26,935 bases of DNA from Pseudomonadota bacterium (GTDB taxonomy: Bacteria; Bdellovibrionota; FAC87; UBA2466): the NCBI GenBank assembly GCA_043767805.1, contig JAYUGC010000131.1, positions 1-26,935 of the forward strand, written 5' to 3'. Of the stretch, positions 628 to 16,198 are shown piece after piece; the stretch's first letter is position 1; every line of letters starts with the position of its first letter. The notes beneath the pieces were generated by a model, which had not been told where the DNA came from, did no database searches, and was given only the letters and a program-made list of their open reading frames with translations. A program made the translations under genes and the position numbers.

Positions 628-1752
628 TTAGCCGACTAAGAGGCCAGTTTCCCGGCCGCGTTCTTTGCGAAAGCTCATGCCCGTGCCCAGCGCTCCGGGG
701 TGGAGGCGCTCGTGAATCTCACGGGCGGTGAGCGTTGAGAGGGACTCTGGAAGCAGCGAATGCCGAGCTACGCCCGCGTCCATTTCGGTGAGGAGCACTT
801 GCCCCGACTCCAAGTTGAAAGTCTGCGGTAGAGCGGGCAGCACTTCGAGCCAGCCCCGGTTCTCTTGCGAAACCGTCAAATAAAAAGCGTCGTCTTGATC
901 GACGGGCACGCAAACGATGCCCATCTTCTCGCCGACAAAAGCGCCAGTGTCGCGCTCTTCTTGGGAGGAAAAGCGCAAGACCGCCACTTTCGAGTTCGTT
1001 ACTACCGCACTCGGCTGAGGCCCGAGCCCGATGACGCTACCGACGGTGCCATCGCCCGTTCCCCGGCAAACGATGCGAACGCCGGTAAGCTTTGCGTAAC
1101 TGACCGCGCCGTGGTGCAAAACCTTCGCGCCACTGCGAGACAAAGTGATGATGGCGTCGTACGGCACTTTTGCCATGGGTTTTGCCTGAGGCACCACATA
1201 AGGATCCGCCGTGTAAACGCCGGGGACGTCTGAGAAGATCTCGCACTCACCGGCCCCCAGCATCGACGCCAAGATGACCGCCGACAAATCGGAGCTGTTA
1301 CGACCGAGCATGGTGATTTGCCCGTCCGCGTTCACGGCCTGGCCGCCCGCGACGACCACAACCTTGTGGTTCATGAAGGCCTTCTCCAAAGCGGAGGAGT
1401 CCGTGCCCAGGATAGAAGCCCGCGTGTGCTTAGAGTCCGTGAGAATCCCGACCTGATAGCCCGTGAAATGCGTCGCGGGGATTTTTTCCGCTTCCAAAGC
1501 CGCGCGCATCAAACAAGCCGCGGTCATCTCGCCCGTGGCCAGCAACGAATCGGTCAAAGCCGAAGACATTTCCGGGTTCACGGAAAGCCCGGCCTCTTGG
1601 ATACGCCCCGTAGTTCCCGACATGGCGCTGACCACGACCACCAGCCGATCCGTGTCGGTGAGCAGGCGTGATCCCAAGTAACGCGCGATTTCCCGATAGC
1701 TCTCCATCTTGGGAAACGAAGAGCCGCCAAATTTAAGCACCCGTGTCTTCAT
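628..1752 (-). CDS. lysC: Aspartate kinase family protein (cluster-associated, divergent C-terminus)
   Basis: VLKFGGSS, VVVVSAM, LATGE, LGRNSSDLSA, DVPGVYTADP and GAKVLH motifs; 2 nt downstream of asd. Confidence 0.88.
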   Translation of the reverse strand: MKTRVLKFGGSSFPKMESYREIARYLGSRLLTDTDRLVVVVSAMSGTTGRIQEAGLSVNPEMSSALTDSLLATGEMTAACLMRAALEAEKIPATHFTGYQVGILTDSKHTRASILGTDSSALEKAFMNHKVVVVAGGQAVNADGQITMLGRNSSDLSAVILASMLGAGECEIFSDVPGVYTADPYVVPQAKPMAKVPYDAIITLSRSGAKVLHHGAVSYAKLTGVRIVCRGTGDGTVGSVIGLGPQPSAVVTNSKVAVLRFSSQEERDTGAFVGEKMGIVCVPVDQDDAFYLTVSQENRGWLEVLPALPQTFNLESGQVLLTEMDAGVARHSLLPESLSTLTAREIHERLHPGALGTGMSFRKERGRETGLLVG

Positions 1753-1754
1753 AC

Positions 1755-2780
1755 TTACCTCCCGACGACTTTCTCCGCGATTTGAATGGCGTTTAGCGCC
1801 GCTCCCACTCTCAAATTATCCGCGACGACCCAGCTCCAGAAAGCCGTGAGGCTTTGCGGATCGAGGCGAACGCGCCCGACATGCACATGATTGCTGGAGG
1901 ACAGCATCCGAGGCGTCGGGTAGTCGGACGTGGTCTGCGAGTCGTACACGATGATCTCTTCGCCGCTCTTGATGACCTTTAGCAATTCGCCGCGATCGAG
2001 CTTCTGCTTCGTCTCGACGTAAATCGCTTCCGAGTGACCGTTCAAGACGGGCACGCGGACGCAAGTCGCAGTCAGCTTAAAGCCGGGGATACGCAAGATC
2101 TTTGCCGTCTCCTGCACCATCTTCTGCTCCTCCAGGGTGAAACCATTCTCCTGAAACACGTCGACCTGGGGGACGACGTTAAAGGCGAGAGGCTGCGGGA
2201 ACTTCTTCGATTCGAAAGGCGCGGAAGGATCTTTCATGAAACCCGCGATGCCGCGGTTCAACTCTTCCATGCCGGTCAACCCGCCCCCGGAAGCCGCTTG
2301 GTAGGTGCTCACGATGACGCGGTCGATGCCGAAAGCCTTCTCTATGACGTCCAGCAGGCGCACCATCTGAATGGTCGAGCAGTTTGGGTTTGCGACGATG
2401 CCGGACTTCGGGCGGGTCTTCAAAAGATCGCCGTTTACTTGCGGCACGACCAGAGGGCTATCCGGATCCATGCGATGAGCGTTGGTGTTATCGATGACCA
2501 AGGCGCCTTGGCCCGCGGCCCGGCTCGCCCAAATCTTACTCGTGCCGGTTCCGGCCGAGAAGAAGGCGATGTCGGTCTTGGAGAAATCGAAAGTCTCGAG
2601 ATCTTCCACCACGTAGTCTTTGCCGCGGAAGGGAATCTTGGTGCCGGCCGAGCGCTTAGAGGCAACGAGCTTCATTTCCGAGAAAGTGAAGTTACGCTCC
2701 TGCATCAGCGTCATGAGCTCTTTACCGACGGCGCCCGTGGCTCCGACGATGGCGACTCTGGGGTTCATTCCGTTAAGCAT
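1755..2780 (-). CDS. asd: Aspartate-semialdehyde dehydrogenase
   Basis: GATGAVG Rossmann motif, catalytic [39 protein letters not shown]. Confidence 0.96.
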
Positions 2781-3678
2781 TTTTGACTCCTAAAGTTTTG
2801 CGCTCGGCCTTGAAAAGATCCGAGAATAATTGGGTACCGGGCTTCTTCAAGGCCACGTAACTCGAGGCGATGATGAGAAGCCCTCCGAAGACCGTCGGCA
2901 AGGCCACCGCTTCCCGGAAGAACAACACACCGAAGACGATGGTCGAGAGCGTGTAGACGTATTGCAAGATTCCGGCGACGGCCGCCTTAACCGTCTGAAG
3001 CGCTTTAAAGTACATCAAGTAGGGCACCGCGGTGTGAAAAACTCCCATGGTAACGAGGACCGCCCACTGGGTTCCGGTCAATGGCGCCGAGATATGGCTC
3101 AAGCCCACCGGGAGGAAGAGCAGAGCTCCCACGGTCGTCTGAAACAGGGTGATGGCCAAGGCTGGAAGGTCCTTTAAGTAACGGCCGAGTACCGTCACCT
3201 GCGAGAAGAGCGCCGCCGCGACCATGGCGTAGAGGCAACCGGGGTCGACGTTACTCAAATGGAGGCCCTTCGCCGCCAAGATGAAGACGACTCCCAGGAA
3301 CGAGATCCCGATGCACATGACCTGACGGACCGTTGGCGACTCCTTCAAGAACACCATGGCCGAGAGAAGCACGAAGATGGGAGCGAGGTTATAGAGCAAA
3401 ATGGAGTTCGTGATCGTGGTCGTTAATACCGCCTTGAAAAAGAAGAACCAATTGGAGGCCATGAAAAGCCCGGTGAGGCACAATAGACCCAGGGTCTTGT
3501 TCCACCGAAGCAGTCCTTTCAGGGAGCCGCGGTACAAAACGACTCCGACAATCGCCAGAGCGCCTATCCCGCAGCGAAAAAGCACGATGCTTTCCGCGGG
3601 AAGGTTCGCCCAGCGGGCGAAGGCCGCGACACTACCCAGCATCACCTGGGAAATCGTTAGCATTAAATAACCGTTCAT
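2773..3678 (-). CDS. EamA/DMT family exporter
   Basis: 301 aa with about 10 hydrophobic segments and duplicated EamA halves (APIFV...FLKE; ...FFRE..); overlaps the asd start. Confidence 0.9.
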   Translation of the reverse strand: MNGYLMLTISQVMLGSVAAFARWANLPAESIVLFRCGIGALAIVGVVLYRGSLKGLLRWNKTLGLLCLTGLFMASNWFFFFKAVLTTTITNSILLYNLAPIFVLLSAMVFLKESPTVRQVMCIGISFLGVVFILAAKGLHLSNVDPGCLYAMVAAALFSQVTVLGRYLKDLPALAITLFQTTVGALLFLPVGLSHISAPLTGTQWAVLVTMGVFHTAVPYLMYFKALQTVKAAVAGILQYVYTLSTIVFGVLFFREAVALPTVFGGLLIIASSYVALKKPGTQLFSDLFKAERKTLGVKNA

Positions 3679-3692
3679 AACTTACGTCCTAT

Positions 3693-4853
3693 TTACATTT
3701 GGATCATGGTCCGAAGAGCTTCCCCTTCGGAGAGCAGCGCGACTTCCCCCATGGTAGGCGCGCGGCTGATCGTTTCAAAAACTTGCCCAATCGCATTGAG
3801 CAGTCCCCAGTTTTCGGCGTAGGGGCTCGGCCATCCGGGGCATCCGTTCTCGATGTCCCGCTGGCGGGTATAAAGGTAGTCCGCCCATTCGGGGCACCGC
3901 GCGTGGCGGTGGTGGTAATCGTGAACCGGCAAATCGCCCGTCAAGACCGCGACCCGAATCGGAAGGTGAAAGAACGCCATCCGCGCCGTCCACTTCGCCC
4001 AAGCGCCGAGCGAATCCGTCCGAGGCACCGCCTCGCCGACAAAACGGCCCGCGGTGAGCGTGCAAATCGTTTCCTTCGGCGTCGCCCCCGCTTTAGGCAC
4101 TTTCAGCCAGAAGTGGAGTGACGAGAAGTTGAGCAAAGCCGCGACGTGATAAGGCGCGGTCAAAGGCAAAACCCAGCCCACGAGAAAACCGGTCCAGCCG
4201 CCGAGATAAGTCACCATGCCGGGCAGCGCGCTATAGAAAAGGACCGCGCTCAAGCGGCGCAAAGGCGTGCCGGTCACGAAGTTCGCGAGCAGGCGGCCTT
4301 TCATAAACTTGCCGTGGAAGCGGGGAGACACCACCGTGTAGCGGAGTTGTCTCCACAACGCTTCGACGGTCATGCCAGGTTTGAAGCCTAGCTCGAGTAA
4401 AAACTTACAATCCGGATCCACGGGCGAAGCGAGGCGCTTCGTGTGATGGATCTCGACGTGCTCGTGGTAGTACGAGTCGAAGTGATCGACCAGGATCAAG
4501 GTCGTCAAAGCTTGGCCAATCAGGCGATCGATAAGGCGATGCCCGGTCAAAGCGTAATGCGCGCACTGGTGAGCGAGCGTCACTTGAATCTTTCGCGCGG
4601 AGCCCACGAGAATAATCCAGCAAGGCAGAATGCCGACCCAAGCGACGGGTCCCACCCGAAAGAGCCAGGAGGCAGTAACGGCACTTCCGAGGAGACCCGC
4701 CAAAGCGAGAACGACGTGCCCGATACCGTTCGAGCGCCACAAGGCGTTCTGACCCTGATGGGCTTTTCCGGTGAGAAGGGTGAGGGCGGGCTGCGCCCAA
4801 CGGGGCAGCCGCCGCATTCCTTCCCGCACGTCGAGGTTAGAGGACGGGTTCAT
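3693..4853 (-). CDS. Membrane fatty-acid-desaturase-superfamily diiron enzyme (probably a small-molecule desaturase/hydroxylase)
   Basis: Three His boxes HQCAH, HVEIHH and HDYHH with intervening hydrophobic segments; ATGA overlap with the mutase S gene. Confidence 0.85.
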   Translation of the reverse strand: MNPSSNLDVREGMRRLPRWAQPALTLLTGKAHQGQNALWRSNGIGHVVLALAGLLGSAVTASWLFRVGPVAWVGILPCWIILVGSARKIQVTLAHQCAHYALTGHRLIDRLIGQALTTLILVDHFDSYYHEHVEIHHTKRLASPVDPDCKFLLELGFKPGMTVEALWRQLRYTVVSPRFHGKFMKGRLLANFVTGTPLRRLSAVLFYSALPGMVTYLGGWTGFLVGWVLPLTAPYHVAALLNFSSLHFWLKVPKAGATPKETICTLTAGRFVGEAVPRTDSLGAWAKWTARMAFFHLPIRVAVLTGDLPVHDYHHRHARCPEWADYLYTRQRDIENGCPGWPSPYAENWGLLNAIGQVFETISRAPTMGEVALLSEGEALRTMIQM

Positions 4854-5269
4854 ACCGCTCTCCGCATCCGGCGCTCTTCGCTGAGCCGGTCGAGTAAAGG
4901 AAGAATCCCGGTGTGCGAGGGCAAAACGTGATCGACGCCGAGGGAGAAAAACCGGCGAAGGTCGCTCTCCTTCTTATCTGCGCCGACCGAGAGATTGCCG
5001 CCGATCAAAACGGGGCAACGGATGTCGCCGCATTGTTTGGCATCACGCAAACCTTGGAGATCGGAAGCGGCATGGCCGTTCAACGAGCCGATGAGCATCG
5101 CTTCGGCATCCGGATGATTTCTCGCGGCCTGGGCGAACTCGGTGACCGGCGTGCAGGCGCCGAGATTAACGACCTCGAAGCCCTTTTCACGGAGCCAGAA
5201 GGCGATCATATGATTTCCGACGACGTGGGCGTCGCTCGCGGTGACGCCCAGAATGACTTTTCTTTTCAT
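4850..5269 (-). CDS. glmS: Glutamate (methylaspartate) mutase S subunit, cobalamin-binding (MamA/MutS-type)
   Basis: DAHVVG (DxHxxG), GSLNGH and IGG B12-binding motifs; 139 aa; adjacent to the E subunit; AAGGAG RBS. The symbol refers to the mutase subunit, not glucosamine synthase. Confidence 0.93.
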   Translation of the reverse strand: MKRKVILGVTASDAHVVGNHMIAFWLREKGFEVVNLGACTPVTEFAQAARNHPDAEAMLIGSLNGHAASDLQGLRDAKQCGDIRCPVLIGGNLSVGADKKESDLRRFFSLGVDHVLPSHTGILPLLDRLSEERRMRRAV

Positions 5270-5284
5270 GTCCCGCTCCTTTGG

Positions 5285-6667
5285 TTAGTCGGACAGCCTC
5301 GCCGTCCGTTGCCGATAAAAATTGCCGCTGAAATACTGAATGTCTCGAAAGACACGCTCGATGCTGTCGTTACTGGCCTTTCCAGAGCAGATGAGTCTCG
5401 AGTTGCGCTGCTTCGTCTTCTCCGAGAAAGGAAGCTTTCCCGGGTTCAGGTACCGGATGGCGCCTTTGCTGTCTCTCGCCGGAATCACTTCCGACTTCGC
5501 GTGCCGGCTCGTACTGAACGGCATATCCAACCTGCCGACTCGAAACGCTCGCGCGATGGCTTCCATTCGATTGGGCTCGGCGAGAACCGGCTCCACCAGT
5601 TCTTCGACTTCGCGCCGGATCCAGTAAGCTTCCTCTTCAACCCTTCCATCCTCTAGACTGATGAAGTCCAGCATCGGGAAGGCCGCCATCTTCGCGGTGA
5701 GTATCCCCTCGGCATTCGACATTGCATTTGGGATGCCAAAAGCTTCTTGGTTCGTTTTCGTGATGAGCTTCGTTGCCCGCCCCAGCTTCGCGGTCAGTGA
5801 GCCGTAGAAAATCAAAGAGTCGGCTTCCACGCGATCTTTTGGGAAGGCTCCCATGAACTCGTGTAGCACCGGGAACACCTCCACATCCTTGGGGAGGTAG
5901 TCCCGAGCTAGACCACGAATCGCATGGAGTGCGGCCACGTCCTGAATGAGATTGCCGCCTTGGGGGTAGGCAACGGACAGGCATTTCACTCCGGCACTCG
6001 TCGCTAAAATTGCCTCGAACAGCGTTAAGGCGAGACTGATGGAAGGGGGAACGAGGACGGCGGATAGCGTTCCGAACAACTCTCTATCGATGAGGATGCC
6101 CGCAAGCGCGAGCTCACCACAGACGCGATCGACGTAATCCCAAGCCTTTAACGACTCGAGGATAGGGACGTCTTTCGCATAGGGCAGGTTGTAACAGATG
6201 CCTCCGCCTTCGAACGAAGTTATCCCGGCCGCCACCGCGGTCTCGAAGAGGAGCCTCGCGTCCGGAGAGCCGTGGCGCACTTCCAAGGGTGCGTCCACGG
6301 ACGCTTCAAGCGCGCGGCCTTTCATCCAGCCGTGATTGACGAGGGGATATCCATTGAGTTGAGAGGGGTCTTTCTTGAGAACTTCTCCTCCCCGCTGAAA
6401 CTGTTTGAGGCGCGTGTAGGAGTCGATGGTGATGGAAAGAATGTCGGGTTGTGCCGTCTTCTCAATGTCCTGGAGTAACTGAACCATGGGCCCGTGCCCG
6501 CCGACACCGCAACGGGGCTGGAACAACAGCTTGCCATTGCGATCTGCCGCGCGAAGCACTTGGGCGACTGTAGGCTTCGTTCTCCGCCGAAGAAACGCAT
6601 TGGTCTCTTCGAACGTCGGTAGAGAGAAACCGGATTCTTGTACTAGTTGTTTTCTTTCCTCTTGCAT
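5285..6667 (-). CDS. glmE: Glutamate (methylaspartate) mutase E subunit (MamB/MutE-type)
   Basis: QPRCGV, ITIDSYTR, LNGYPLVNHG, VRHGSPDARLL, SFEGGGICYNLPY and RELFGTL motifs; ATG at 6667 is 6 nt from GGGAG. Confidence 0.93.
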   Translation of the reverse strand: MQEERKQLVQESGFSLPTFEETNAFLRRRTKPTVAQVLRAADRNGKLLFQPRCGVGGHGPMVQLLQDIEKTAQPDILSITIDSYTRLKQFQRGGEVLKKDPSQLNGYPLVNHGWMKGRALEASVDAPLEVRHGSPDARLLFETAVAAGITSFEGGGICYNLPYAKDVPILESLKAWDYVDRVCGELALAGILIDRELFGTLSAVLVPPSISLALTLFEAILATSAGVKCLSVAYPQGGNLIQDVAALHAIRGLARDYLPKDVEVFPVLHEFMGAFPKDRVEADSLIFYGSLTAKLGRATKLITKTNQEAFGIPNAMSNAEGILTAKMAAFPMLDFISLEDGRVEEEAYWIRREVEELVEPVLAEPNRMEAIARAFRVGRLDMPFSTSRHAKSEVIPARDSKGAIRYLNPGKLPFSEKTKQRNSRLICSGKASNDSIERVFRDIQYFSGNFYRQRTARLSD

Positions 6668-6724
6668 CAACGACTCCCGGAGGGTCGCTAGAGCAAGGGT
6701 CGTGCCGAAAGATGTTTCGAGGTG

Positions 6725-7516
6725 TTACGGGAGCTCGCCGCGAGAGACGAGAACGGCTTCACCGGAGATGAAAGTGCGCTCTTCTTCGGGGCGCACGCGA
6801 ACGAATCCGCCGCGCTTGGAAGACTGATACGCGCGCATCTCGGGTTTTTTCAGTTTCTTTTTCCAGTAAGGCCCGAGGAGGCAATGCGCGGCGCCGGTCA
6901 CGGGATCTTCATTCACGCCGATTTTAGGGCCGAAGAAGCGCGAAACGAAATCCGTTTTGCCGGTGCCTTTGGCCGTTACGATTACGGCGCGAGGCTCCAG
7001 AGCTTTCAGCTTTTCGATGTCGGGCGTGAGCAACCGGACTTTGTCTTGATTGCCGATATTGACGAGGAGAAAGCCCGCCGAATTAATGCCCACGTAGCTG
7101 GGAGCTTCGGTGAGACCGAGCGCTTCGCGAAGCCCTTTCGGCTCATCGCAAACCGTCGGCGCGAGGGTCGGAAAATCCAAGGTGATCCACGTGTCGTTCT
7201 TGCTGGCGGTGAGCCGCCCGCTCAGCGTATCGAATTGGAGTTTCTGATTGCCGGGAACGATGCCTTCGCTCCAGAGCACGAAGGCCGAGGCGAGAGTCGC
7301 ATGCCCACAAAGATCGATTTCGATCGTGGGGGTGAACCAGCGCAGGCCCCACGATCCGGCTTCCTTTTTCAGGAAGGCGGTCTCCGAGAGATTCATCTCG
7401 GCGGCGACCTTTTGCATCCACGCATCCGTCCGATTCTCATCGAGAATGACGACGGCGGCGGGGTTTCCGCGGTTGGCTTCCTTGGTAAAGGCATCGACCA
7501 GAAATAGACGGTTCAT
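6725..7516 (-). CDS. PhzF/YddE family isomerase-epimerase (DAP-epimerase fold)
   Basis: VDAFT, GNPAAV, EMNLSETAF, LRWFTP, EIDLCGHATLA, EDPVTG; ATGA overlap with the regulator stop. Confidence 0.93.
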   Translation of the reverse strand: MNRLFLVDAFTKEANRGNPAAVVILDENRTDAWMQKVAAEMNLSETAFLKKEAGSWGLRWFTPTIEIDLCGHATLASAFVLWSEGIVPGNQKLQFDTLSGRLTASKNDTWITLDFPTLAPTVCDEPKGLREALGLTEAPSYVGINSAGFLLVNIGNQDKVRLLTPDIEKLKALEPRAVIVTAKGTGKTDFVSRFFGPKIGVNEDPVTGAAHCLLGPYWKKKLKKPEMRAYQSSKRGGFVRVRPEEERTFISGEAVLVSRGELP

Positions 7517-8901
7517 GGCGTTTCTTTACGGTCTTCTCCGGCTCGATACAAGCCAAATCTCTTCATGATGGAGTGGAGCGTGCTCGGCGATATTCCGAGG
7601 CGCTGCGCCGCCTGGAATTTGTTCTTGGACGACTGAATAATCGTCTCGATGTGCTTTCTCTCTTCGGACTCGTGTTTCGTTTTTAGCTCTGTGAGAGAGA
7701 GGCTCGCCGTGACGGTCTCCGTCGAGAAAAACTTCGCGTCGAGCTGCTCGGGGGTGACCTTATCGTCTGGCGATTCGGTCAAAAGGCGATAGACCGTGTG
7801 CTCGAGCTCTCGCACGTTCCCGGGCCAGTCGTAGGTCTCGAGCTGGCGGACGGTGCGCATCAAAAACGACTTCTTGTTGCCGGTCTCTTCCGCGATTTTG
7901 CGGCAAAAGTGAGCGACCAACGGCTCGATGTCCTCGGGGCGATCTTTCAAGCGCGGTAGACAAAGGCTCAGGACGTTCAAGCGATGATAAAAATCGAGGA
8001 GGAACTCACCGCGATCGGCGCGCGCGCCGAGATCGGGCTTCGCCGCCGCAATCAAACGGAAGCGGACGTCGATCTCTTTCGCTCCACCCACGCGGCGGAT
8101 TTTCTTCTCCTGAAATACGCGCAAAAGTTTCGCTTGAGCCGTTAGGGAAAGCTGATGGATCTCGTCGAAAAAAACGGTCCCGCCGTTCGCGGTCTCGAGG
8201 ATGCCTTTCTTCTCGGCATTGGCTCCCGTGAAGGCACCTTTCTCGTAACCAAATAATTCCGATTCCAAAAGATCCGTACTGCCCTGATACGCGGCGCAGT
8301 TAATCGCAAAGAAGGGACCTTTCTTCGAATCGTGAAGCGCGCGAGCGACGAGTTCTTTACCGGTTCCGGTGTCGCCCAAAATCAAAACGTTTTGATTGTT
8401 CTCTCGGTAGAGCACCGCTTTACGAGCTAGCTCGGCGAGAGATTCGGATCGTCCCACCATGCTGATGCTCGCGATGATTTTTTCCTTCTCGGTCATCGCG
8501 AGATTCGTGTTCAGCGTGCGGTAGGTGTGATCGTACTTAAGGCACCAGTTGCGTACCGTCTTCAAAAACGTTTCGAAGTCGCCTTCCTTTTCGATGAACT
8601 CGACGGCGCCCGCGCGCCAGGTTTTCTGCATGGCGAGGCGAGAGGAATCGCCGGAATATATTAAAACGTACGCTTCCGGGTTCACGCGGCGGATGGCTTC
8701 CGCCGTTTCGGCGCCGTCCATGTCGCGCATCTGGTAATCCACGATGACCAGCGCATATTCCTGCGGGTTCTTACGGACCTTCTCGACGCCCTCCGCGCCA
8801 CTCTGGGCCGCGTGAACGGAGTAGCCGTTTCGCTCTAAGAGGAAACGGGTCGCCTGAAGATTCAGCGGGTCGTCATCGATCAGCAGTAAGCGGTACGCCA
8901 C
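7513..8901 (-). CDS. Sigma54-dependent response regulator (NtrC/AtoC-type: receiver, AAA+, Fis HTH)
   Basis: Receiver LIDDD..IVDY..YSG..IEK; Walker A GDTGTGKE; ESELFG; GAFTGA; Walker B FFDEI; WPGNVREL; HTH AAQRLGISPSTL. GTG at 8901 is preferred over TTG at 8907 on RBS spacing. Confidence 0.96.
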   Translation of the reverse strand: MAYRLLLIDDDPLNLQATRFLLERNGYSVHAAQSGAEGVEKVRKNPQEYALVIVDYQMRDMDGAETAEAIRRVNPEAYVLIYSGDSSRLAMQKTWRAGAVEFIEKEGDFETFLKTVRNWCLKYDHTYRTLNTNLAMTEKEKIIASISMVGRSESLAELARKAVLYRENNQNVLILGDTGTGKELVARALHDSKKGPFFAINCAAYQGSTDLLESELFGYEKGAFTGANAEKKGILETANGGTVFFDEIHQLSLTAQAKLLRVFQEKKIRRVGGAKEIDVRFRLIAAAKPDLGARADRGEFLLDFYHRLNVLSLCLPRLKDRPEDIEPLVAHFCRKIAEETGNKKSFLMRTVRQLETYDWPGNVRELEHTVYRLLTESPDDKVTPEQLDAKFFSTETVTASLSLTELKTKHESEERKHIETIIQSSKNKFQAAQRLGISPSTLHSIMKRFGLYRAGEDRKETP

Positions 8902-8936
8902 GTTCAACTCCCTCCCGATCGATGTCGGGAGTGAGA

Positions 8937-8974: not shown

Positions 8975-9001
8975 TGCGAAAGTTCGCAGCGAACCTTCGC
9001 A
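8975..9001. promoter_or_regulatory. Tandem palindromic boxes 1 and 2 (candidate enhancer/UAS)
   Basis: TGCGAAAGTTCGCA (8975-8988) and AGCGAACCTTCGCA (8988-9001). Confidence 0.7.
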
Positions 9002-9023
9002 AAGTTTGAGGCAAATTATGGTA

Positions 9024-9040
9024 ACCTAATGAAATTAGGT
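9024..9040. repeat. AT-rich perfect inverted repeat ACCTAAT-GAA-ATTAGGT
   Basis: 7-bp arms with a 3-nt spacer, lying between the TGCGAA boxes. Confidence 0.55.
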
Positions 9041-9073
9041 GCTTATTATTCCTATCTGGTTTTTTGGAAAATC

Positions 9074-9087
9074 TGCGAAGGTTCGCA
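9074..9087. promoter_or_regulatory. Palindromic box 3 (candidate UAS)
   Basis: TGCGAAGGTTCGCA; its left flank TGGAAAATC nearly duplicates TGGAAATC before box 1. Confidence 0.7.
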
Positions 9088-9127
9088 ATGAATCCAGGCT
9101 CGGAGGTCTTTTGAGAGCAGGGCGACT

Positions 9128-9141
9128 TGCGAAGGATCGCA
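9128..9141. promoter_or_regulatory. Palindromic box 4 (candidate UAS)
   Basis: TGCGAAGGATCGCA, one mismatch, about 85 bp upstream of the -24 element. Confidence 0.65.
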
Positions 9142-9222
9142 AAACTTACTCGGAGTTCCAGCCTGAGAGTCAAAATGGCCCCGGATTTGGGCTTGAGCCA
9201 TGCCCAGAAACTCCGAATGAGC

Positions 9223-9240
9223 CTGGCACGGTGCGTGCTT
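9223..9240 (+). promoter_or_regulatory. Sigma54 (-24/-12) promoter of the rightward operon
   Basis: CTGGCACGGTGCGTGCTT: GG at 9225-9226 and GC at 9237-9238 separated by exactly 10 nt; TGGCACG is consensus; divergent from a GAFTGA activator gene. Confidence 0.85.
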
Positions 9241-9368
9241 AGTGTCCCTCCCGAGGCTCGCAGCTGGGGCTGCTAGCTAGGCTGACTAAAAGAGGCACCT
9301 TGGCACGGTGACAAAGGAGGGCACTTTCCTCCCGCGCGCTACGGCCGAGGCAAGAGGGAGTAGTTGAG

Positions 9369-10139
9369 ATGTCGATTCAGGAATACACGCCGACCCAGGA
9401 AAAAATCTTCAAGATGGACCACCCCGAGGTGGTCTCCACGACCGCGCTTTTTCACGCCGAGGTGATGAGCCGCCAGATTTTCGAGCGCTTCGAGATCACG
9501 GCCGGGGACCAGTCTTACGAGAAAGCCGTAGCTGTGGCTGGCGCCTGGCACGCCTTTTCCGAGTTCATGCCCTGGTTTCTCTGTGAAGCTTCCGCCCGCG
9601 TGAGCAATAACCGGATTCGCCACTACGTCATCCAAACCGCCTTCGAAGAGCTCGGCATGCGCCGGGAAGACGAGATTCACCACGAGATGTTCTGGTCCGC
9701 CGCCGAAGAAGTCGGCATCGGCCGCAACGTACGCGATCGTTACAGCCGCGATCCGAAAGTGATGGGCGCCCTTCAGATGTTGCGCGAGACGATTCTCAAC
9801 ACGACCTCGGACGCCGAGATTCTCGGCCTTCTCCTGGGACTCGAGATGCCCGCGGAAGAGAACATCGATACGGTGTTCTTCTCCATGAGCTACTCGGAAG
9901 AAGCCGAGCGCCGTCTCGGCGAAACTCACTTTTTCAAGATTCATAAGATGATCGAGATCGAGCACGTACGGCTCACCATCTCGAACTATCTGCGGTTTTG
10001 CGGAACGGATAAGAGGAAGGCCCAGTACCGGACCGGCTTCGAGGCCGGCACCCATTTCTGGGACAAGTTCTGGACCGCCTGCGGAGATTTGGTCCTTCAG
10101 GAGAAGCGCGGAGGATCCACGATTGCCCGGACGGCGTGA
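9369..10139 (+). CDS. Heme-oxygenase-like diiron oxidase (HDO; iron-containing redox enzyme / CADD-PqqC-like fold)
   Basis: FEELG..x..H (EIHHEMF), LGLE, and FFKIHKMIEIEH with H-x3-E-x2-H spacing; helical 256 aa; GAGGGAG RBS. Confidence 0.8.
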   Translation: MSIQEYTPTQEKIFKMDHPEVVSTTALFHAEVMSRQIFERFEITAGDQSYEKAVAVAGAWHAFSEFMPWFLCEASARVSNNRIRHYVIQTAFEELGMRREDEIHHEMFWSAAEEVGIGRNVRDRYSRDPKVMGALQMLRETILNTTSDAEILGLLLGLEMPAEENIDTVFFSMSYSEEAERRLGETHFFKIHKMIEIEHVRLTISNYLRFCGTDKRKAQYRTGFEAGTHFWDKFWTACGDLVLQEKRGGSTIARTA

Positions 10140-11289
10140 ATTCAAGCGGCTCCTCGTCGCGGCCTTCGTGTCGCAGACGGGGAGCCATTTTCTCACTCTT
10201 TCGATCACGGCCTTCGTGTATCTTGCGTCGGACTCCGCCCCGAAGGCCGCCATGGTCTTCGTCCTTTCCTATTTGCCCTCCGTTTTGATGAGCGGCACTT
10301 TCGGCCCTTGGGTCGATAAACGCATTTCCCGCCGGTTCCTCATCGCCAACGAAATGGTTTCGATTGCGGCGAGCGTGGCTTGCGGGCTCGCGCTCTGGGC
10401 AAAAGCTCCGCTCTTCGTCCTGGGATTTTTCATCGCGCTTCGCTCGCTCTGCCTCTTTACGAGCCGGTCGGGTCTCACCAAGTGGGTGAAAACGATTTCT
10501 CCTCCCGAAGTGCAGAAGGCGCGCATTCAGCTTTTCTTTCTCACCTTTTTCTTATCGACCGGCGTGTCGGGAATTCTGGCCGCGGTCGTACTCTCGAAGC
10601 TTTCCATTTTAACCATCATTGCTTTCGACGCGGCGACGTACCTGCTCAGTGCCTTACTCCTTTCGCGCCTTCAAGAATTGCCGAAAGCCGCAAGCGGACC
10701 GGCTGCGGTGGGTTTCCCGATCACGCGTGTGCTCGCGGATCCTTTGCTTCGCCCTGCCGCCGTCTCGGTGGCCTTTTCGCAAGCGCTCTTTCAAGGCGCC
10801 TATTCGGTTTTGGTGACCTATCTTCCCGTGCATCAGCTGGGACTCGGCCTTTCGGGCGTGGGTTTCTTTCAGCTCGCCGCGACGCTCGGCATCTTGGCGG
10901 GCTTCGTCGTTAACTGGAAGTCGAAGCGCCTCGTGTCTACGGAACTTTTGGCGAACACCGCGGGAGTGGCTCTGCTTTCTCTCGCGCAGATTTCGTCGTT
11001 GCCGGCGGCCCTCGTCTCTTTCTGGGTCCTCAACTTTGCCTATGAATGCGTTTGGCTCAATAAGAGCAGTGAGTTTTTTCAGGCGATGCCAGAGAACGAG
11101 AGCGCGAGCCTTCAATTTGCACTCAACTCGGGCGCCTCTTTCCTGATGGCCATCTTCACTCTCCTTTATGCTTTCGGCATTGAAGCTTGGGGCATTGGCT
11201 CGGCGCTTCCCGCCATAGCGATCGCGGGTGGCTTGGCTTGGGCGTTTCTGCTCCTGAAGAAACCCGTCCCCGCGGAGGCTCGGCCATGA
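10123..11289 (+). CDS. MFS transporter (probable exporter)
   Basis: About 12 TM segments; motif-A-like GPWVDKRISRR; FDAATYLLSA as in DHA3/macrolide-efflux-like MFS; TTG start after GGAGG. Confidence 0.88.
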   Translation: MPGRREFKRLLVAAFVSQTGSHFLTLSITAFVYLASDSAPKAAMVFVLSYLPSVLMSGTFGPWVDKRISRRFLIANEMVSIAASVACGLALWAKAPLFVLGFFIALRSLCLFTSRSGLTKWVKTISPPEVQKARIQLFFLTFFLSTGVSGILAAVVLSKLSILTIIAFDAATYLLSALLLSRLQELPKAASGPAAVGFPITRVLADPLLRPAAVSVAFSQALFQGAYSVLVTYLPVHQLGLGLSGVGFFQLAATLGILAGFVVNWKSKRLVSTELLANTAGVALLSLAQISSLPAALVSFWVLNFAYECVWLNKSSEFFQAMPENESASLQFALNSGASFLMAIFTLLYAFGIEAWGIGSALPAIAIAGGLAWAFLLLKKPVPAEARP

Positions 11290-12533
11290 CGATTCTTTTC
11301 TTGGAGCCCAAAGGCACGGCCCTCGAAGTCATTCGAGAGGCGAAGCGCCAAGGGTATAAAGTCGTCGCGCTCGTTTGCGATCCGACGATGCTCTCCGGTA
11401 CTCCGCTCCCTTATCGCACGGCGATTGCCTCCATCGATAAGACGGTGACGCTGAAATCTTGGTCCGACTGGGAAGCGCTTCTCGCCGCCGCCAAAACTTT
11501 GAACCGAGAAGACGCGGTCAAAGGCGTCTACTTCAGTCTCGATGCGGCGGCCGTTGCGGGAACGCGCTTGAGGAAGCATTTTAAGCTTCCTTCTCCCACC
11601 CCAGAGACGATGGCTCTGGTCCTCGATAAATACCGGCTTCGCCACGCGCTACGGGAAAAGGGGCTGTCCAGTCTCATGAGCTACCGAGGCGAAGAGGCGG
11701 ACGCTTGGACTTCGTGGAAACTCAAAGGCGAAGCCTATTTCAAGCCCGTGAATGGATCGTTTAGCGCGTTCGTCGAAAAATGCGCTTCGCTGGAGGATTT
11801 GCACCGCGCCCGTAAAGCTTGGTCGTCCATGGGAGCCGAGACGCCCGCGATGCTGCGTGACTACATCGGTGCCGGTAACGGCTACCTCGTCGAAGAAGCC
11901 TTCGACGGCGAGCTGATGTCTCTCGAAGGCATTTGCGTGAACGGTGAGTACAAAGCGCTCGGGCTTACCTCGCGCATTCTGTACTCGAAGAATCCCGTCG
12001 TCGAAATGGGCTCCGTTTTTCCGTACCCTCACAAGCTCGCCGCGAAAATCCAGGAATTCGTTCAAAGGGTGCATGAAGCGGTTGGTTTTACCGAGGGCCC
12101 GAGCCACGTCGAGCTCATGGTGGATGCTTCCGGCCATATGGAAATCATCGATTTCAACGCCCGCTTCATCGGCGCGGACGTAATGCAGTCGATTAATTTT
12201 GCGCTCGGCATTAAGATTCAGGAAGCGTTGCTCGATTTCGCCGTCGGAAAGGCGCCGAAGCTCGTTTACGAGCAAAAGAAGTTTGCTTGCCTGCAATACG
12301 CCTTGCCGCCGCAGGCGCTCGAAGTGAAGACGCTCGAATTTCCCAAGGGCGACGACGTGGTCTTTCATACCGCCTATATCGAGGCCGGACAAAAAGTGGA
12401 AAGCACCGAGCGGCAAATCGATTATTTGGGCTGCTATCTCACGCTGGGCGACAGTTTTGAGGACGCGCTGGCCAGAAGCCACGCGCACCGAGAAGGTTTG
12501 ATTCTCAACGGAAAGCTGAAGGGATCGTTCTAA
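11286..12533 (+). CDS. ATP-grasp ligase (L-amino-acid ligase-like)
   Basis: DKYRLR, FKPVNGSFS, LVEEAFDGELMSLEG, GPSHVEL, IIDFNARFIG, C-terminal YLGCY. True start is ATG 11286 (ATGA overlap, GGAGG RBS), not 11187. Confidence 0.88.
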   Translation: MTILFLEPKGTALEVIREAKRQGYKVVALVCDPTMLSGTPLPYRTAIASIDKTVTLKSWSDWEALLAAAKTLNREDAVKGVYFSLDAAAVAGTRLRKHFKLPSPTPETMALVLDKYRLRHALREKGLSSLMSYRGEEADAWTSWKLKGEAYFKPVNGSFSAFVEKCASLEDLHRARKAWSSMGAETPAMLRDYIGAGNGYLVEEAFDGELMSLEGICVNGEYKALGLTSRILYSKNPVVEMGSVFPYPHKLAAKIQEFVQRVHEAVGFTEGPSHVELMVDASGHMEIIDFNARFIGADVMQSINFALGIKIQEALLDFAVGKAPKLVYEQKKFACLQYALPPQALEVKTLEFPKGDDVVFHTAYIEAGQKVESTERQIDYLGCYLTLGDSFEDALARSHAHREGLILNGKLKGSF

Positions 12534-13243
12534 TGCTGAAATCGACGTTGGTAATCGCGGGCGGAAGTCAGGGAACCGGAGCGGCCATTGCGGAAGCCGC
12601 TTTGAAGCGAGGCATGGCGGTCGCCGTCGTCGCCCGCCGTAAGGAATTTTTGGACGCGCTTCAAAAAGAGCTCGGCTCGAACGTGTCCATCCACGTGGCG
12701 GATCTTTCCGACGTCGCGGCAACGCAAAGAGCCTTTCAGGAAATCGCGGCCACCCGGCCTCCGATCCGCGCCTTGGTTAATTGCGCGGCCACCTGGTTCG
12801 GCGGCAAGACGGTCGAAGAATGGACGGCCGAGGACATGGCCAATTCTTTCAAGCTCAACTTTCTCAGTACGTTCAATCCCATTCAGGAAACCCTGAAGGC
12901 TTGGCGGAAAACCGGTGGCGAGCTCGCCATCGTCAATCTCGGGGCGACCGCCGCCTTGCGAGGGCGTCAAAAGGTATCGCCGTTCGCCGTGGCCAAGGGC
13001 GCCGTGCGCCAGTTGTCGCAGAGCTTGGCTCGTGAGCTCGGTCCCGAAGGCGTGCATGTCGCCCACGTAATTTTGGATGGTCTCATCGATAACGCCCGCA
13101 CTCGCGGGCTCAATCCTGAATTAACGCAAGACAAGTACTTGAATCTCGCCTCCATCGCGAAGTCCGTCTTGAACGTCATCGAGGAAGACAAGAGCTGCTG
13201 GACCCACGAGTGGGATCTGCGGCCCAGCGTTGAGAAGTGGTAG
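12533..13243 (+). CDS. Short-chain dehydrogenase/reductase of the FxxxK subgroup
   Basis: AGGSQGTG, NCA, GATAALRG, FAVAK in place of YxxxK, ARELGPEGVHVAHVILDG; TAATG coupling to the upstream gene. Confidence 0.9.
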   Translation: MLKSTLVIAGGSQGTGAAIAEAALKRGMAVAVVARRKEFLDALQKELGSNVSIHVADLSDVAATQRAFQEIAATRPPIRALVNCAATWFGGKTVEEWTAEDMANSFKLNFLSTFNPIQETLKAWRKTGGELAIVNLGATAALRGRQKVSPFAVAKGAVRQLSQSLARELGPEGVHVAHVILDGLIDNARTRGLNPELTQDKYLNLASIAKSVLNVIEEDKSCWTHEWDLRPSVEKW

Positions 13244-13247
13244 TTTC

Positions 13248-14420
13248 ATGAAACGCGTAATAATCAGCTTGCTGCTCCTCGCCACCGCGGCCCAAGCTGG
13301 AACGAAAACGTTCCGCGTCGGCCAGATTTTCCGCTTTCAGGACAAGTTCAATGCGACCGTGGAAGAAATGCTCGCCGGCATGGAGCTCGCGCGCCAATTT
13401 TACGAAAAGGATCACCCGAACGTTCACATCAAGTTCTCCCGCATCGGCCACGCCGCCGACGATAAACTCGTCCGTAATCAGGAGACCAATCTCGCCTCCG
13501 TCGCCGAAGCCGCTCGTGAGTTTCTGGCCACCGACATTCCCGTCGCCATCGGCGGAGAGATGAGCGATGAGTCCATCGTTTTAGGCGACCTTTTCAAAGA
13601 TCAGCATCGGGTGCTCCTGACGCCGACCTCGACCAATCCGGCCGTTACCCTGGGTAAGCCCTTCACCTTTAGGGCGTGCTTCTCCGACGAATTAGTCGCG
13701 GACCGCATGGCGGAGTACGCCGTGACTCGCTTGAAGCCTCAGGCCATTGGCGTCCTTCATAACGTCTCTTCTCCTTATACCGATTTCTTGAGCCGGCGTT
13801 TCACGGAGAGGTTTCAGGAGCTCGCGGCCAAGATTCCCGGCTACCACCCCAGAGTGGTTGTTCAGAAGTACCTTCGCCGGCACATGGATTTTTCGCCTCA
13901 GGTGAAAGCTTTTCAGGATGCCGGCATCACGCACGTGGCGGCTTTTAACCACGACATGGAAATGTTGAACTATCTCGCCTTCAGCACGAAAGCGGATTTC
14001 AATCCGCTCTATCTGACGAGCGATGGCTGGGGCTCCAATAACTATATCTTCGATCAGTTCATCAAACAGAATCCCAAAGGGGATAAGTTCGTCGTCATTC
14101 GCAATTCCTACTGGAACGAAGCTTCCCAGGCGCCGCTTGCGGTGCGTTTTCGTAAAGCTCGCTTAAAACAGACGAAAGATCTCTCGCCCTCGGCGGCGAT
14201 GGGTTTCGATACGGCTTGGATGCTCTTTCACGCCATGGATAACGCCAAAGACGCGGGCAATGCGGACTCCATCCGTGAAGCTCTCATGGCGCTCAAAGGT
14301 CTCTCTTTGGTGACGAGCCGGACGCTCAGTTTCCCGAAGGACGACAACACGCCGGTCAAAGAGCTTCATCTCTATCGTATCGACAAGCTGGGCGTTCACT
14401 TCGAGGAGACGCTCAAGTGA
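13248..14420 (+). CDS. Periplasmic ligand-binding protein, LivJ/LivK (type I, amino-acid-binding) family
   Basis: Signal peptide MKRVIISLLLLATAAQA; TPTSTNPAVT..KPFTFRACFSD, SDGW, AAMGFD, IREAL patterns; start moved to ATG 13248. Confidence 0.85.
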   Translation: MKRVIISLLLLATAAQAGTKTFRVGQIFRFQDKFNATVEEMLAGMELARQFYEKDHPNVHIKFSRIGHAADDKLVRNQETNLASVAEAAREFLATDIPVAIGGEMSDESIVLGDLFKDQHRVLLTPTSTNPAVTLGKPFTFRACFSDELVADRMAEYAVTRLKPQAIGVLHNVSSPYTDFLSRRFTERFQELAAKIPGYHPRVVVQKYLRRHMDFSPQVKAFQDAGITHVAAFNHDMEMLNYLAFSTKADFNPLYLTSDGWGSNNYIFDQFIKQNPKGDKFVVIRNSYWNEASQAPLAVRFRKARLKQTKDLSPSAAMGFDTAWMLFHAMDNAKDAGNADSIREALMALKGLSLVTSRTLSFPKDDNTPVKELHLYRIDKLGVHFEETLK

Positions 14421-16198
14421 AGCTTCCTCTCTCCAACGCCCTGAAGCGCCACCCTCTGACCTACTTCACGGTCGGTTCCATGGTGGTCCTGTTTGTGTGC
14501 GCGACCGCGACCTGCCTTTGGTTTACGAAAATTTTCCTGGAAAAAGAACGGCACCGCGCCGAGACCTCTCTGATTCAACTCAAGCAGGCGTTCGAAGTGC
14601 AGTACAACTCCATGGCGGAGGCGATGTGGACCGGAAACCACGAGGCCATCGCTTTTCACGTCGATTTGGTGACCAAGCAGCTCGGCGAGGCGAGAAGCGA
14701 AGTGTACTTAACCGACGAAACGGGCCGCTGCCTTTTGAGTCGGGGCCGCGACGGCATCCTTTCCCGCTCCTGTGACGTGCCCGCGGATTTGAAGGCCACC
14801 CAAAGCGCCGAGAAGCAGGTCCAGTACGATTCTAGCCGCGCGGCCTACGTGTACAGCGCCCCGCTTTCGGTGGGAACGGTCTCCAAGGGCTTTCTCTTCG
14901 CGGTCATCACCGATCCTTATGACTTTTACCGGGGAAGTTTGGGCTCGGTTTTCTGGAAGACCCTTCCGCCCGCCATGATCCTCGTCTTGCTCGTTTGGTT
15001 TTTGTGGCTTGGTTTGTCTCGCCGTTTCTTGCTGAGACCTTACCTCCAGCGTGAGGTTTCCCTGGAGCGGAAGATGGCTCTCGCCCAGATGGCCTCTCAA
15101 GTCGCTCACGATATCCGTTCACCGCTGAGCGCTCTTAGTATCGCCATCACCTACGCCGAAGACCTTCCCGAGGACATTCGCACCATGATTCGTAGCGCGG
15201 TGGGGCGCATTCAGGACATCGCTCAAGGCTTGCTGGAAAAGCGGCGTGAGCTCGAGTCCACGGACCCGGCCCCTGGAAAAATGCTTTCTCCCGAAGCGGA
15301 GTCCGTGCAGCTCGTCTCCGCGCTTTTAGAAAGTCTTTTGACCGAGAAGCGCGTGCGCTATGCCGAAAAGGCCGGAGTCGAGATCGAAATGCAGCTCGAC
15401 GTTTCGGCCTACGGGCTATTTGCCAAGGTGAGGCCGACTCAGTTTAAGCGCGTGCTCTCCAACCTCGTCGATAACGCGGTGGAAGCCATCGAACGAGAAG
15501 GCAAAGTTAAGATCGGCATGTCTCGAGAGGGCGATGAAGTCGTCGTGACGGTGGTCGATGACGGCCGCGGTATCCCGGAAGACGTGTTGCCGTCGCTCGG
15601 ACGCGAAGGGATGTCCTACGGAAAGCTCGGGGGCTCTGGGCTCGGCTTGTTCCACGCCTCGCAAACGGTCGCTCAGTGGCAGGGCCGGCTCGATCTCGTT
15701 TCGAAGCCGGGGAAGGGCACGGTCGTTACGCTATCTCTGCCGCGCGCCGAGACTCCGATTTGGTTTTTGACCGAGCTCCGTCTGGCCGAGGGCATGACAG
15801 TCGTCGCTCTGGACGATGACCCCTCCATTCACGGCATTTGGAAAGAGCGCCTTGGTCCTTTCGGCAATGAGCTTGTGTCTTTCGTTTCGGGCTCGGCGTT
15901 TCTCGAGTGGTACGCGACGAGAAAGCCCGCCGGCAAAGTCCTTTATCTTTTCGACTACGAGCTCCTGGGCCAGGAAGCGAACGGCCCCGAGATCATCGAG
16001 CGCTTACGTCTGGAGGACGACGCGGTACTCGTCACTAGCCGCTTCGAGGAACCGGCGGTCCTCGCTCACTGCCGCAAGCTTGGCATCCGCATTCTTCCGA
16101 AGAACCTCGCCGGCCTCATTCCCTGCCTCTCCGAGCGCCGGGCCGGGCTGGCGGCAACGTCCGCTGAGTCTGAATCTTCCGTCATTCCAGGTAGATAA
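14417..16198 (+). CDS. Membrane-bound hybrid sensor histidine kinase with C-terminal receiver
   Basis: Two TM segments flank a ~140 aa extracytoplasmic region; H-box QVAHDIRSPL; N-box SNLVDNAVEA; DDGRGI; GSGLGL; receiver ALDDD..FDYE..VTS..PK; GTGA overlap with the binding-protein gene. Confidence 0.93.
   Translation: MKLPLSNALKRHPLTYFTVGSMVVLFVCATATCLWFTKIFLEKERHRAETSLIQLKQAFEVQYNSMAEAMWTGNHEAIAFHVDLVTKQLGEARSEVYLTDETGRCLLSRGRDGILSRSCDVPADLKATQSAEKQVQYDSSRAAYVYSAPLSVGTVSKGFLFAVITDPYDFYRGSLGSVFWKTLPPAMILVLLVWFLWLGLSRRFLLRPYLQREVSLERKMALAQMASQVAHDIRSPLSALSIAITYAEDLPEDIRTMIRSAVGRIQDIAQGLLEKRRELESTDPAPGKMLSPEAESVQLVSALLESLLTEKRVRYAEKAGVEIEMQLDVSAYGLFAKVRPTQFKRVLSNLVDNAVEAIEREGKVKIGMSREGDEVVVTVVDDGRGIPEDVLPSLGREGMSYGKLGGSGLGLFHASQTVAQWQGRLDLVSKPGKGTVVTLSLPRAETPIWFLTELRLAEGMTVVALDDDPSIHGIWKERLGPFGNELVSFVSGSAFLEWYATRKPAGKVLYLFDYELLGQEANGPEIIERLRLEDDAVLVTSRFEEPAVLAHCRKLGIRILPKNLAGLIPCLSERRAGLAATSAESESSVIPGR

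Follow-up and report, generated by a model that had tools for sequence, protein, structure and literature searches.

Two joined gene modules in a Bdellovibrionota contig: a candidate sigma54-controlled biosynthetic cluster with its own putative extracellular sensor

Gene content of the locus

The stretch of DNA analysed here (the window) is the entire 26,935-base contig JAYUGC010000131.1, part of a 4.5-Mb metagenome-assembled genome of the Bdellovibrionota. Two divergent, tightly packed runs of genes in it encode small-molecule enzymes, transporters and the putative parts of an extracellular sensor (Table 1). An initial annotation had described them as a candidate self-contained circuit, in which an amino-acid-derived molecule is made, exported, detected outside the cell and used to amplify its own synthesis. 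Its gene census was correct, ie seven enzyme types plus a short-chain dehydrogenase/reductase (SDR), two transporters, one binding protein, one kinase and one activator, and the overlapping junctions (ATGA, TAATG and GTGA) are present as it described. The start codon favoured for the ATP-grasp ligase overlaps the stop codon of the MFS gene as ATGA, and the binding-protein and kinase genes share a GTGA stop/start overlap. The gene content also supports the biosynthetic, export-oriented character proposed for the locus.

Table 1. Features of the locus. Positions are those of the window. AK, aspartokinase-type kinase; ASD, aspartate-semialdehyde dehydrogenase; HDO, heme-oxygenase-like diiron oxidase; TM, transmembrane.
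Feature	Position	Strand	Basis
AK, AA_kinase, extra paralogue	628..1752	-	AA_kinase 1e-40
ASD, extra paralogue	1755..2780	-	NF011456 and TIGR01296 equivalogs passed
EamA transporter, probably amino-acid/metabolite exporter	2773..3678	-	EamA 1.4e-36; weak 2A78 and YddG matches; multiple TM segments
GntB-like membrane diiron hydroxylase, FA_desaturase fold	3693..4853	-	NF041365 weak; His boxes
Glutamate mutase S subunit GlmS (B12-binding)	4850..5269	-	PF02310; NF002612 107.5 bits (cut-off 110)
Glutamate mutase E subunit GlmE	5285..6670	-	Met_asp_mut_E 404 bits; TIGR01503 367.6 (cut-off 390.1)
sigma54-type -24/-12 promoter for GlmE..AK	6707-6692	-	CGGCACGACCCTTGCT, CGGCAC-N5-TTGCT, 1 mismatch
PhzF-family isomerase	6725..7516	-	PhzC-PhzF 2.6e-65
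sigma54 enhancer-binding response regulator (activator), REC-AAA+-HTH_8	7513..8907	-	Domain matches; GAFTGA at residue 224
Four copies of the palindrome TGCGAA-N2-TTCGCA, putative sites for the activator	8975..9141	.	Motif count
sigma54-type -24/-12 promoter for HDO..kinase	9224..9239	+	TGGCACGGTGCGTGCT, TGGCAC-N5-GTGCT; 145 nt before HDO ATG
HDO, Haem_oxygenas_2	9369..10139	+	PF14518
MFS transporter, weakly DHA3/H+-antiporter-like	10123..11289	+	MFS_1; TIGR00900 43.5 bits, below cut-off
ATP-grasp ligase, L-amino-acid-ligase kind	11286..12533, likely ATG 11286	+	ATP-grasp_4 4e-16; weak BacD and DdaF matches
SDR	12533..13243	+	Family matches
Secreted LivJ-class binding protein, predicted kinase co-sensor	13248..14420	+	Peripla_BP_6; signal peptide
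Membrane hybrid histidine kinase, TM-periplasmic domain-TM-HisKA-HATPase-receiver	14417..16198	+	Domain matches, TM prediction, alignment

Two separately inherited modules

The genes of the plus strand occur elsewhere as a unit. A search with an alignment of the HDO, made over one genome per species in 185,579 species, returned eight other loci in which the arrangement HDO-MFS-ATP-grasp-SDR-binding protein-kinase, usually with the activator, recurs (module B). The records of the related loci are labelled Pseudobdellovibrionaceae, Bdellovibrionaceae, Oligoflexales and Bacteriovoracaceae, with two labelled Elusimicrobia and Polynucleobacter, and the other proteins of the window operon are 30-54% identical to their module B counterparts there. 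The MFS and ATP-grasp genes stand beside the HDO gene in seven of the eight (both are missing in L020) and the SDR gene in six (missing in L015 and L016). The binding protein and kinase are likewise found in six; L018 ends within the binding-protein gene and L015 has neither. An activator gene lies directly upstream of the HDO gene, on the same strand, in five loci (L013, L014, L017, L018 and L020), with orthologues of 44-52% identity in four of them and a distant one (30%) in L020. The stop and start codons of the binding-protein and kinase genes overlap or abut in several module B loci.

The genes of the minus strand have a different distribution. GlmE, GlmS, AK, ASD, PhzF, the GntB-like protein and EamA were looked for within 10 kb of the HDO gene in the eight loci at E <= 1e-8, and none was found in any. 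Of the 401 genomes sampled from the phylum, four had GlmE, and two of these (G256 and G080) keep the block GlmE-GlmS-GntB-like-ASD-AK (module A) at 58-61% identity. A PhzF gene also follows AK in G080. In G256 module A is divergent from genes for an LAL-type ATP-grasp ligase and EamA, and lies near a run of FAD-monooxygenase, LysE, GNAT, binding-protein and kinase genes. Searches for the HDO in the module A genomes G256 and G080, and for GlmE in the HDO genomes G004 and G023, gave no match.

The proposal of one conserved make-export-sense cluster was therefore rejected: the two operons occur apart in other genomes, and the locus is two separately inherited modules which are joined, among the genomes examined, in the window alone. 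In the window the activator gene points the other way from usual, and it overlaps PhzF. As a separate observation, the longest contig listed for a homologue of the GntB-like protein (P0013, 44%) and for one of the ATP-grasp ligase (P0096, 42%) is in both cases 14,993 nt, and this may be another locus where the two modules are joined. In G080 (L026, G080:C1) a gene for sigma54, rpoN, lies at 7372-8931 (-), 1.2 kb past the block GlmE..AK-PhzF, probably by coincidence.

Our reading, to which we give a probability of about one half, is that the window holds a sigma54-controlled biosynthetic cluster put together from these two modules, with the LivJ-like binding protein, the hybrid kinase and the activator in control. 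A contrary view is that module B is a substrate-induced operon for uptake and conversion, or for detoxification, and that module A is an unrelated biosynthetic neighbour which came by chance to be inserted beside the activator. In favour of this, L020 has a gene for an amino-acid permease of the APC family, lying between those for HDO and binding protein in place of the ligase and MFS, and could fit such a role for module B; the two modules occur independently of each other in all other genomes examined; G023 has an activator-binding protein-kinase triad which stands alone (see below); and sensing of nutrients is the commoner use of binding protein-kinase pairs, on the logic of TorT/TorS and DctB/DctD. 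Several points argue the other way. An ATP-grasp ligase, an anabolic enzyme, is retained in seven of the eight loci, and the MFS protein has a match of the DHA3-like, efflux type, in the window copy only. In L020 the sensor genes are followed by GNAT genes, possibly for self-resistance, and the G256 locus has such genes too. Module A has a sigma54 promoter of its own, which together with the overlap of activator and PhzF genes suggests functional integration. Finally, HDO with ATP-grasp is a documented biosynthetic pairing (PMC13185094). We consider the uptake or detoxification view improbable.

Enzymes of the two modules

GlmE and GlmS have the hallmarks of an adenosylcobalamin (AdoCbl) glutamate mutase, ie an arginine claw, Glu171 and the DxHxxG motif. 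Aligned to 6H9E and 1CCW, GlmE retains R66, R100, R149, E171, Y177 and Y181, which we take to be the glutamate claw and catalytic set, and GlmS has the sequence DAHVVG at residue 13. Formation of 3-methylaspartate by this pair is a well-supported prediction from sequence. A role for the mutase in glutamate fermentation was set aside, because no methylaspartase or mesaconase is found among the window open reading frames (ORFs) and the fixed partners of the mutase are the hydroxylase, AK and ASD.

The ASD protein scored 417 bits with NF011456 (cut-off 223) and 401 bits with TIGR01296 (cut-off 324). The AK protein gave 170-215 bits with aspartate kinase models, all under their cut-offs, and it has the catalytic domain only, no ACT match being obtained in its C-terminal 140 amino acids. 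Two further AK-like genes (40% and 35% identity) and another ASD gene (38%) lie elsewhere in the genome, so that the AK and ASD of the window are extra copies in addition to the housekeeping ones.

The closest named relative of the GntB-like protein is the arginine hydroxylase of guanitoxin biosynthesis. It scored only 57.6 bits with the GntB model NF041365 (cut-off 380), and its His boxes H95xxxH, H132xxxHH and H311xxHH are invariant in 23 sequences; TM segments are present. On this sequence evidence it has the fold of GntB and is probably not the same enzyme. The family appears small, with 28 clusters among 5.8 billion in a word-limited search. A scan of metagenomes gave 92 confirmed loci, of which 80 were retained, 55 of them with flanks of 700 nt or more on each side of the gene. 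GlmS and/or GlmE directly adjoin the GntB-like gene in 23 of the 80, and in 16 of the 55. Four loci (L077, L091, L110 and L112; 48 ORFs) were annotated in detail. The pair is accompanied by ATP-grasp ligases and aminotransferases in L091, L110 and L112, by MFS exporters in L091 and L110, by a pyridoxal-phosphate decarboxylase in L091 and by an SDR in L110; no ligase, MFS or aminotransferase gene was seen in L077. The regulators are of PucR type in L091, SARP/BTAD type in L112 and LuxR type in L077. AK, ASD, binding protein, kinase and HDO were all unmatched in the 80 loci at E <= 1e-6, and the sole activator match was weak and partial (L075, 34%, E 3e-8). Hydroxylase and mutase thus form a building-block unit widespread in soil metagenomes, and the addition of AK/ASD and of a sigma54 sensor is specific to the Bdellovibrionota versions of it. 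Together the GntB-like/mutase loci look like an uncharacterised family of small clusters based on 3-methylaspartate.

The structural model of the HDO (predicted local distance difference test, pLDDT, 87.6) gave UndA, BesC, PolF, CADD, HrmI and RohS as top Foldseek matches, and the invariant residues E93/E94, H104, E159/E164 and E196/E198/H199 form a carboxylate/His set. Against sequences of solved structures the sole match was BesC, at E 0.004. The ATP-grasp ligase has 77 homologue clusters, some with LAL_C2 (PF18603).

The sensor genes

The annotated hybrid kinase and GAFTGA activator are both confirmed. The activator also has a Walker A motif, GDTGTGK, and D57 is read as its phosphoryl acceptor. 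In the kinase, two membrane segments flank a periplasmic domain some 140 residues long, with invariant C105/C119, for which no family was matched in the scans. The Pfam match to a receiver is weak (E=0.07); the name hybrid kinase nevertheless holds, because DDD466-468, D513 and K562 are invariant in eight orthologues, as are H231, N349 and D381/G383/G385. The kinases of L013, L016 and L020 carry a second receiver-like segment, with a further DDD, at alignment columns ~650-777; that of the window has one.

The binding protein had been called an orphan, and this was borne out: besides having a signal peptide, it is without an ABC permease or ATPase partner among the window ORFs. The structures nearest to its model (pLDDT 85.8) are Leu/Ile/Val-binding proteins (3TD9, E 2e-23). 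By the alignment offset, S106, T127-T129 and Y177 fall on positions of LivJ which we take to be main-chain contacts with the ligand, a weak inference. From the model the ligand is likely to be alpha-amino-acid-like. The protein is 34-46% identical to the binding proteins of module B loci which have no module A.

The mature binding protein was modelled together with the periplasmic domain of the kinase, from 7-row alignments built for this analysis, in three runs and with three controls. The complex scored 0.89 in all three runs, and the best control 0.00. In the calibration set, 116 of 157 solved complexes and 2 of 215 mismatched pairs reach this mark, counts which hold only roughly, given the purpose-made 7-row alignments. 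At least 97% of contacts are common to the runs, with a pLDDT of at least 81 for the partners. Residues 65-84 of the kinase, including the invariant E68 and W71, face residues 106-114 and 173-179 of the binding protein, invariant residues among them. Solved complexes of a binding protein and a kinase exist (LuxP-LuxQ and TorT-TorS), and recall of these is unlikely to lie behind the score, because the binding protein here is of another class and the periplasmic domain is without a family. The model supports contact between the binding protein and the kinase periplasmic domain.

The annotation had predicted that sensing genes would accompany the enzymes in other genomes, and they do so in six of the eight HDO loci, a seventh being cut off at the contig end; a different pair stands beside module A in G256. 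There the kinase is 46% identical to that of the window over 357 residues (kinase core and receiver), the periplasmic domain differs, and the binding protein is only 23% identical. In the window the binding-protein and kinase genes lie, as the annotation stated, inside the sigma54-driven operon, which gives positive feedback on the dosage of the sensor. The results support the view that these two proteins and the activator are a regulatory set dedicated to the locus.

A triad of activator (44% identity), binding protein and kinase stands alone in G023 (L042, G023:C24) at 9638-14081, beside TraC/TraG and ParA-like genes. It may be carried by a conjugative element; the HDO operon of this genome lacks a nearby activator. 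Such triads are consequently not tied to one chemistry.

Promoters and palindromes

Motifs were counted at one mismatch or fewer and compared with expectation and with 100 shuffled sequences. The -24/-12 promoter and the repeated palindromes reported between the divergent operons are both present. Two sigma54 sites were found in the window against 0.30 expected, a number reached by 3 of 100 shuffles, and each faces the first gene of an operon. At three mismatches or fewer there was no excess (56 against 57 expected), so that only the sites with at most one mismatch stand out. The second of them, absent from the initial annotation, is inside the 54-nt gap between PhzF and GlmE, 22 nt before the start of GlmE, and is followed by a GGGAG ribosome-binding site. 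Its presence implies at least two transcription units on the minus strand, activator-PhzF and then GlmE to AK. An exact second copy of TGGCACGGTG occurs at 9301-9310 (+), 77 nt past the -24 element of the HDO promoter, with no GC at -12. A scan of the window for sigma-70 promoters and terminators gave nothing usable.

All four copies of TGCGAA-N2-TTCGCA fall in the interval given in Table 1 and none elsewhere in the window, compared with 0.21 expected; 0 of 100 shuffles reached four. A palindrome of another type, GTCC-N8-GGAC, was read by eye in L014, L017, L018 and G256, and in G256 it sits between two divergent sigma54-type promoters, one of which precedes GlmE. Sigma54-type motifs are also found upstream of the orthologous HDO operons in L014, L015, L017, L018 and L019. 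A perfect TGGCATG-N4-GTTGCT lies upstream of the activator gene itself in L014, L017 and L018, and in these loci activator, enzymes and sensor therefore make up one self-activated operon.

These results bear on whether one activator serves both operons. The sensor set of the window might instead run the HDO operon only, with GlmE..AK under another sigma54 activator. There is no palindrome near the promoter at 6707, the genome has at least seven matches to the activator at E <= 1e-60 (that of the window included), and module A of G256 is preceded by sigma54 promoters but has no orthologous activator: none was found for its cluster on the rest of the 45-kb contig, and the best in the G256 genome is 36% identical. 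Enhancer-binding proteins can, on the other hand, act over kilobases. The activator gene of the window is co-directional with module A, directly upstream of it and overlapping PhzF, and the GTCC-N8-GGAC palindrome between the G256 promoters is of the type seen upstream of module B in L014, L017 and L018. Division of control between two activators is possible, and we hold it to be on the unlikely side.

Proposed mechanism and the nature of the ligand

If the locus is a single biosynthetic cluster controlled by its own sensor set, as we prefer, its output is probably a small and unusual compound, an amino acid or a peptide, which the cell exports, and its expression is governed by a sensor facing outwards. 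The AdoCbl glutamate mutase would turn L-glutamate into 3-methylaspartate, the skeleton of which may be modified by the GntB-like membrane diiron hydroxylase. The AK and ASD paralogues would activate and then reduce a carboxylate to give a non-proteinogenic amino-acid aldehyde, with PhzF as a possible isomerase and EamA as the presumed exporter. Module B would oxidise or tailor an amino acid or a peptide, and ligate it into a small peptide to be exported by the MFS protein. The product would be a small ATP-grasp-built peptide of the kind represented by mangotoxin and bacilysin, and possibly an antimetabolite. In the regulatory part, the secreted LivJ-like binding protein would dock on the periplasmic domain of the kinase, and the kinase would control the REC-AAA+ activator, either with no intermediate or by way of an Hpt protein whose gene lies elsewhere. 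For its part the activator is predicted to bind the four TGCGAA-N2-TTCGCA sites and to open the promoter at 9224; it probably opens that at 6707 too. As the binding-protein and kinase genes are inside the activated operon, the sensor would amplify itself. The substrates, the order of steps, the product, the direction of transport, the ligand and the promoter served by the activator are all as we infer them.

Several observations weigh against this scheme. Every chemical step is assigned by analogy, and GlmE, GlmS and AK score just under the NCBIfam equivalog cut-offs. A hybrid kinase normally requires an Hpt domain; there is none in the window, and three ORFs with such a domain are on other contigs. 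The description of the circuit as self-contained was accordingly not upheld. The TGCGAA-N2-TTCGCA palindrome was absent from ten related loci, as would not be expected of a conserved operator, and the palindromes are 2.3 kb from the promoter at 6707, none being nearer, so that control of module A by the activator of the window is a tentative assignment. L015 retains HDO, MFS and ligase without sensor genes, no activator was found within ~14 kb of the HDO operon in G023, and the permease of L020 could, as discussed above, fit a role in uptake and conversion.

A further question is what the binding protein recognises. In the closed loop originally envisaged, the exported product is itself the ligand, and would be a signal akin to those of quorum sensing with new chemistry. 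The sensor genes are inside their own sigma54 operon, and in L014, L017 and L018 the activator is too. The sensor is co-inherited with the enzymes in six or seven of the eight module B loci. In G256 different tailoring genes are paired with a different binding protein and periplasmic domain on a similar kinase core, and a sensor which differs along with the tailoring genes is a prediction of product-matched sensing. A binding protein of the amino-acid class would also fit an amino-acid-derived product. Mildly opposed to this is that the binding protein is an ordinary orthologue of those in loci unable to make a product derived from 3-methylaspartate. One such orthologue is in L020, with its amino-acid permease instead of ligase and MFS. 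If the ligand is conserved among them, it cannot be an end product specific to the window. Autoregulated two-component operons are, in addition, common without any autoinduction. We judge sensing of the product unlikely, and likewise a complete loop in the Bdellovibrionota, with an amino acid or dipeptide derived from 3-methylaspartate being made, exported, recaptured outside by a LivJ-like receptor docked on the hybrid kinase, and fed back through the sigma54 activator onto both operons. If true, it would represent a new class of chemical autoinducer, and a receptor family new to such use, in a bacterium of a predatory lineage.

Within the sensor-controlled cluster that we propose, an external or precursor amino-acid cue is somewhat more likely than the finished product, because loci whose enzyme sets differ share the LivJ-like binding protein. 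The ligand would be informative either way, whether as a self-signal or as an amino-acid cue from prey or nutrients which switches on a possible antimetabolite. Specialised metabolism and chemical sensing in the Bdellovibrionota are little known, and the locus offers a compact small-molecule cluster which carries its own extracellular three-component sensor and has its promoters and predicted binding sites mapped.

Comparison with known systems

The annotation had likened the sensor to LuxP/LuxQ/LuxO of Vibrio. The likeness holds for architecture and not for orthology: in both, a hybrid kinase of the membrane is combined with a periplasmic binding protein and with a REC-AAA+ activator of sigma54. 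The binding protein here is of the LivJ/Peripla_BP_6 class and LuxP of the ribose-binding class, the activator scored 209.6 bits against a LuxO cut-off of 800, and the window has no linked Hpt gene like luxU. The sensor is also embedded in an enzyme operon, unlike that of Vibrio. The TorT/TorS/TorR system similarly has an orphan periplasmic binding protein which passes a cue to a hybrid kinase and induces a linked operon; TorS differs in having its own Hpt, TorR is not a sigma54 activator, and the target is a respiratory operon.

For module A, friulimicin provides a case of glutamate mutase in secondary metabolism, and the enzyme reportedly supplies 3-methylaspartate to macrolactams such as sceliphrolactam; in the window it would likewise be an AdoCbl-dependent supplier of a building block. 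GntB of the guanitoxin pathway is, like its relative here, a membrane enzyme of FA_desaturase fold acting on a free amino acid. Unlike both the mutase-using pathways and guanitoxin, the window has the mutase fixed beside a GntB-like hydroxylase and the AK/ASD paralogues. The bacilysin operon bacABCDE, which codes for a dipeptide antimetabolite, resembles module B in its SDR, ATP-grasp ligase and MFS exporter; the window differs in having no prephenate-derived steps, and the match to BacD is 23.9 bits against a cut-off of 850.

Clusters with HDO and ATP-grasp genes are a published class, in which Badding et al. 2026 counted 1447 HDOs and distinguished at least 25 types of cluster (PMC13185094, PMC13725569). 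The same work showed that in the mangotoxin pathway the HDO MboA acts on a tripeptide made by ligases (PMC13185094, PMC13725569). The mboABCDEF operon of Pseudomonas syringae, with HDO MboA and ATP-grasp MboC/D, is the nearest parallel to the window, which likewise has an HDO and a free-standing ligase in a small operon without a non-ribosomal peptide synthetase (PMC13185094). By this likeness the product of the window would be expected to be a short modified peptide, and the window operon includes an MFS gene. An MboB-type reductase, the MboE deiminase and a second ligase are not among the window ORFs, so that the locus is not an mbo orthologue. The HDO of the window is moreover distant in sequence, and the window adds the SDR, the glutamate mutase/AK/ASD module and the in-operon sensor pair.

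The suggestion of new chemistry can accordingly be kept for the specific product and not for the kind of cluster, HDO with ATP-grasp being a described class (PMC13185094), and module B may be among its 25 catalogued types. The locus combines that class with a new building-block module, putatively for 3-methylaspartate derivatives, and with an in-operon sensor of binding protein, hybrid kinase and sigma54 activator. No description of the mutase/AK/ASD/ATP-grasp combination was found in full-text searches of the literature, and none of this cluster under Bdellovibrio with sigma-54 and binding protein. With no description found in these searches for the mutase and GntB-like pair either, the family of products derived from 3-methylaspartate appears to be uncharted.

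Neighbouring genes

Downstream of the kinase gene are a secreted 250-amino-acid protein without a family (16247-16999, +) and an SGNH/GDSL-like hydrolase (17066-18070, +). Homologues of neither were found in the related loci at E <= 1e-8. Further along, an ORF at 20128-22596 (-) codes for an 822-amino-acid fusion of DUF455 (E 7.9e-48), presumably a ferritin-like family, with a weak match to DUF3182 (E 0.0034). It is overlapped by a 268-amino-acid ORF without a family (22593-23399, -), and 1.4 kb beyond that is a membrane dipeptidase (M19; 24808-26124, -). The DUF455 fusion, the 268-amino-acid ORF and the M19 protein might be another small unit with a role in tailoring or in peptides, or might process a dipeptide product.

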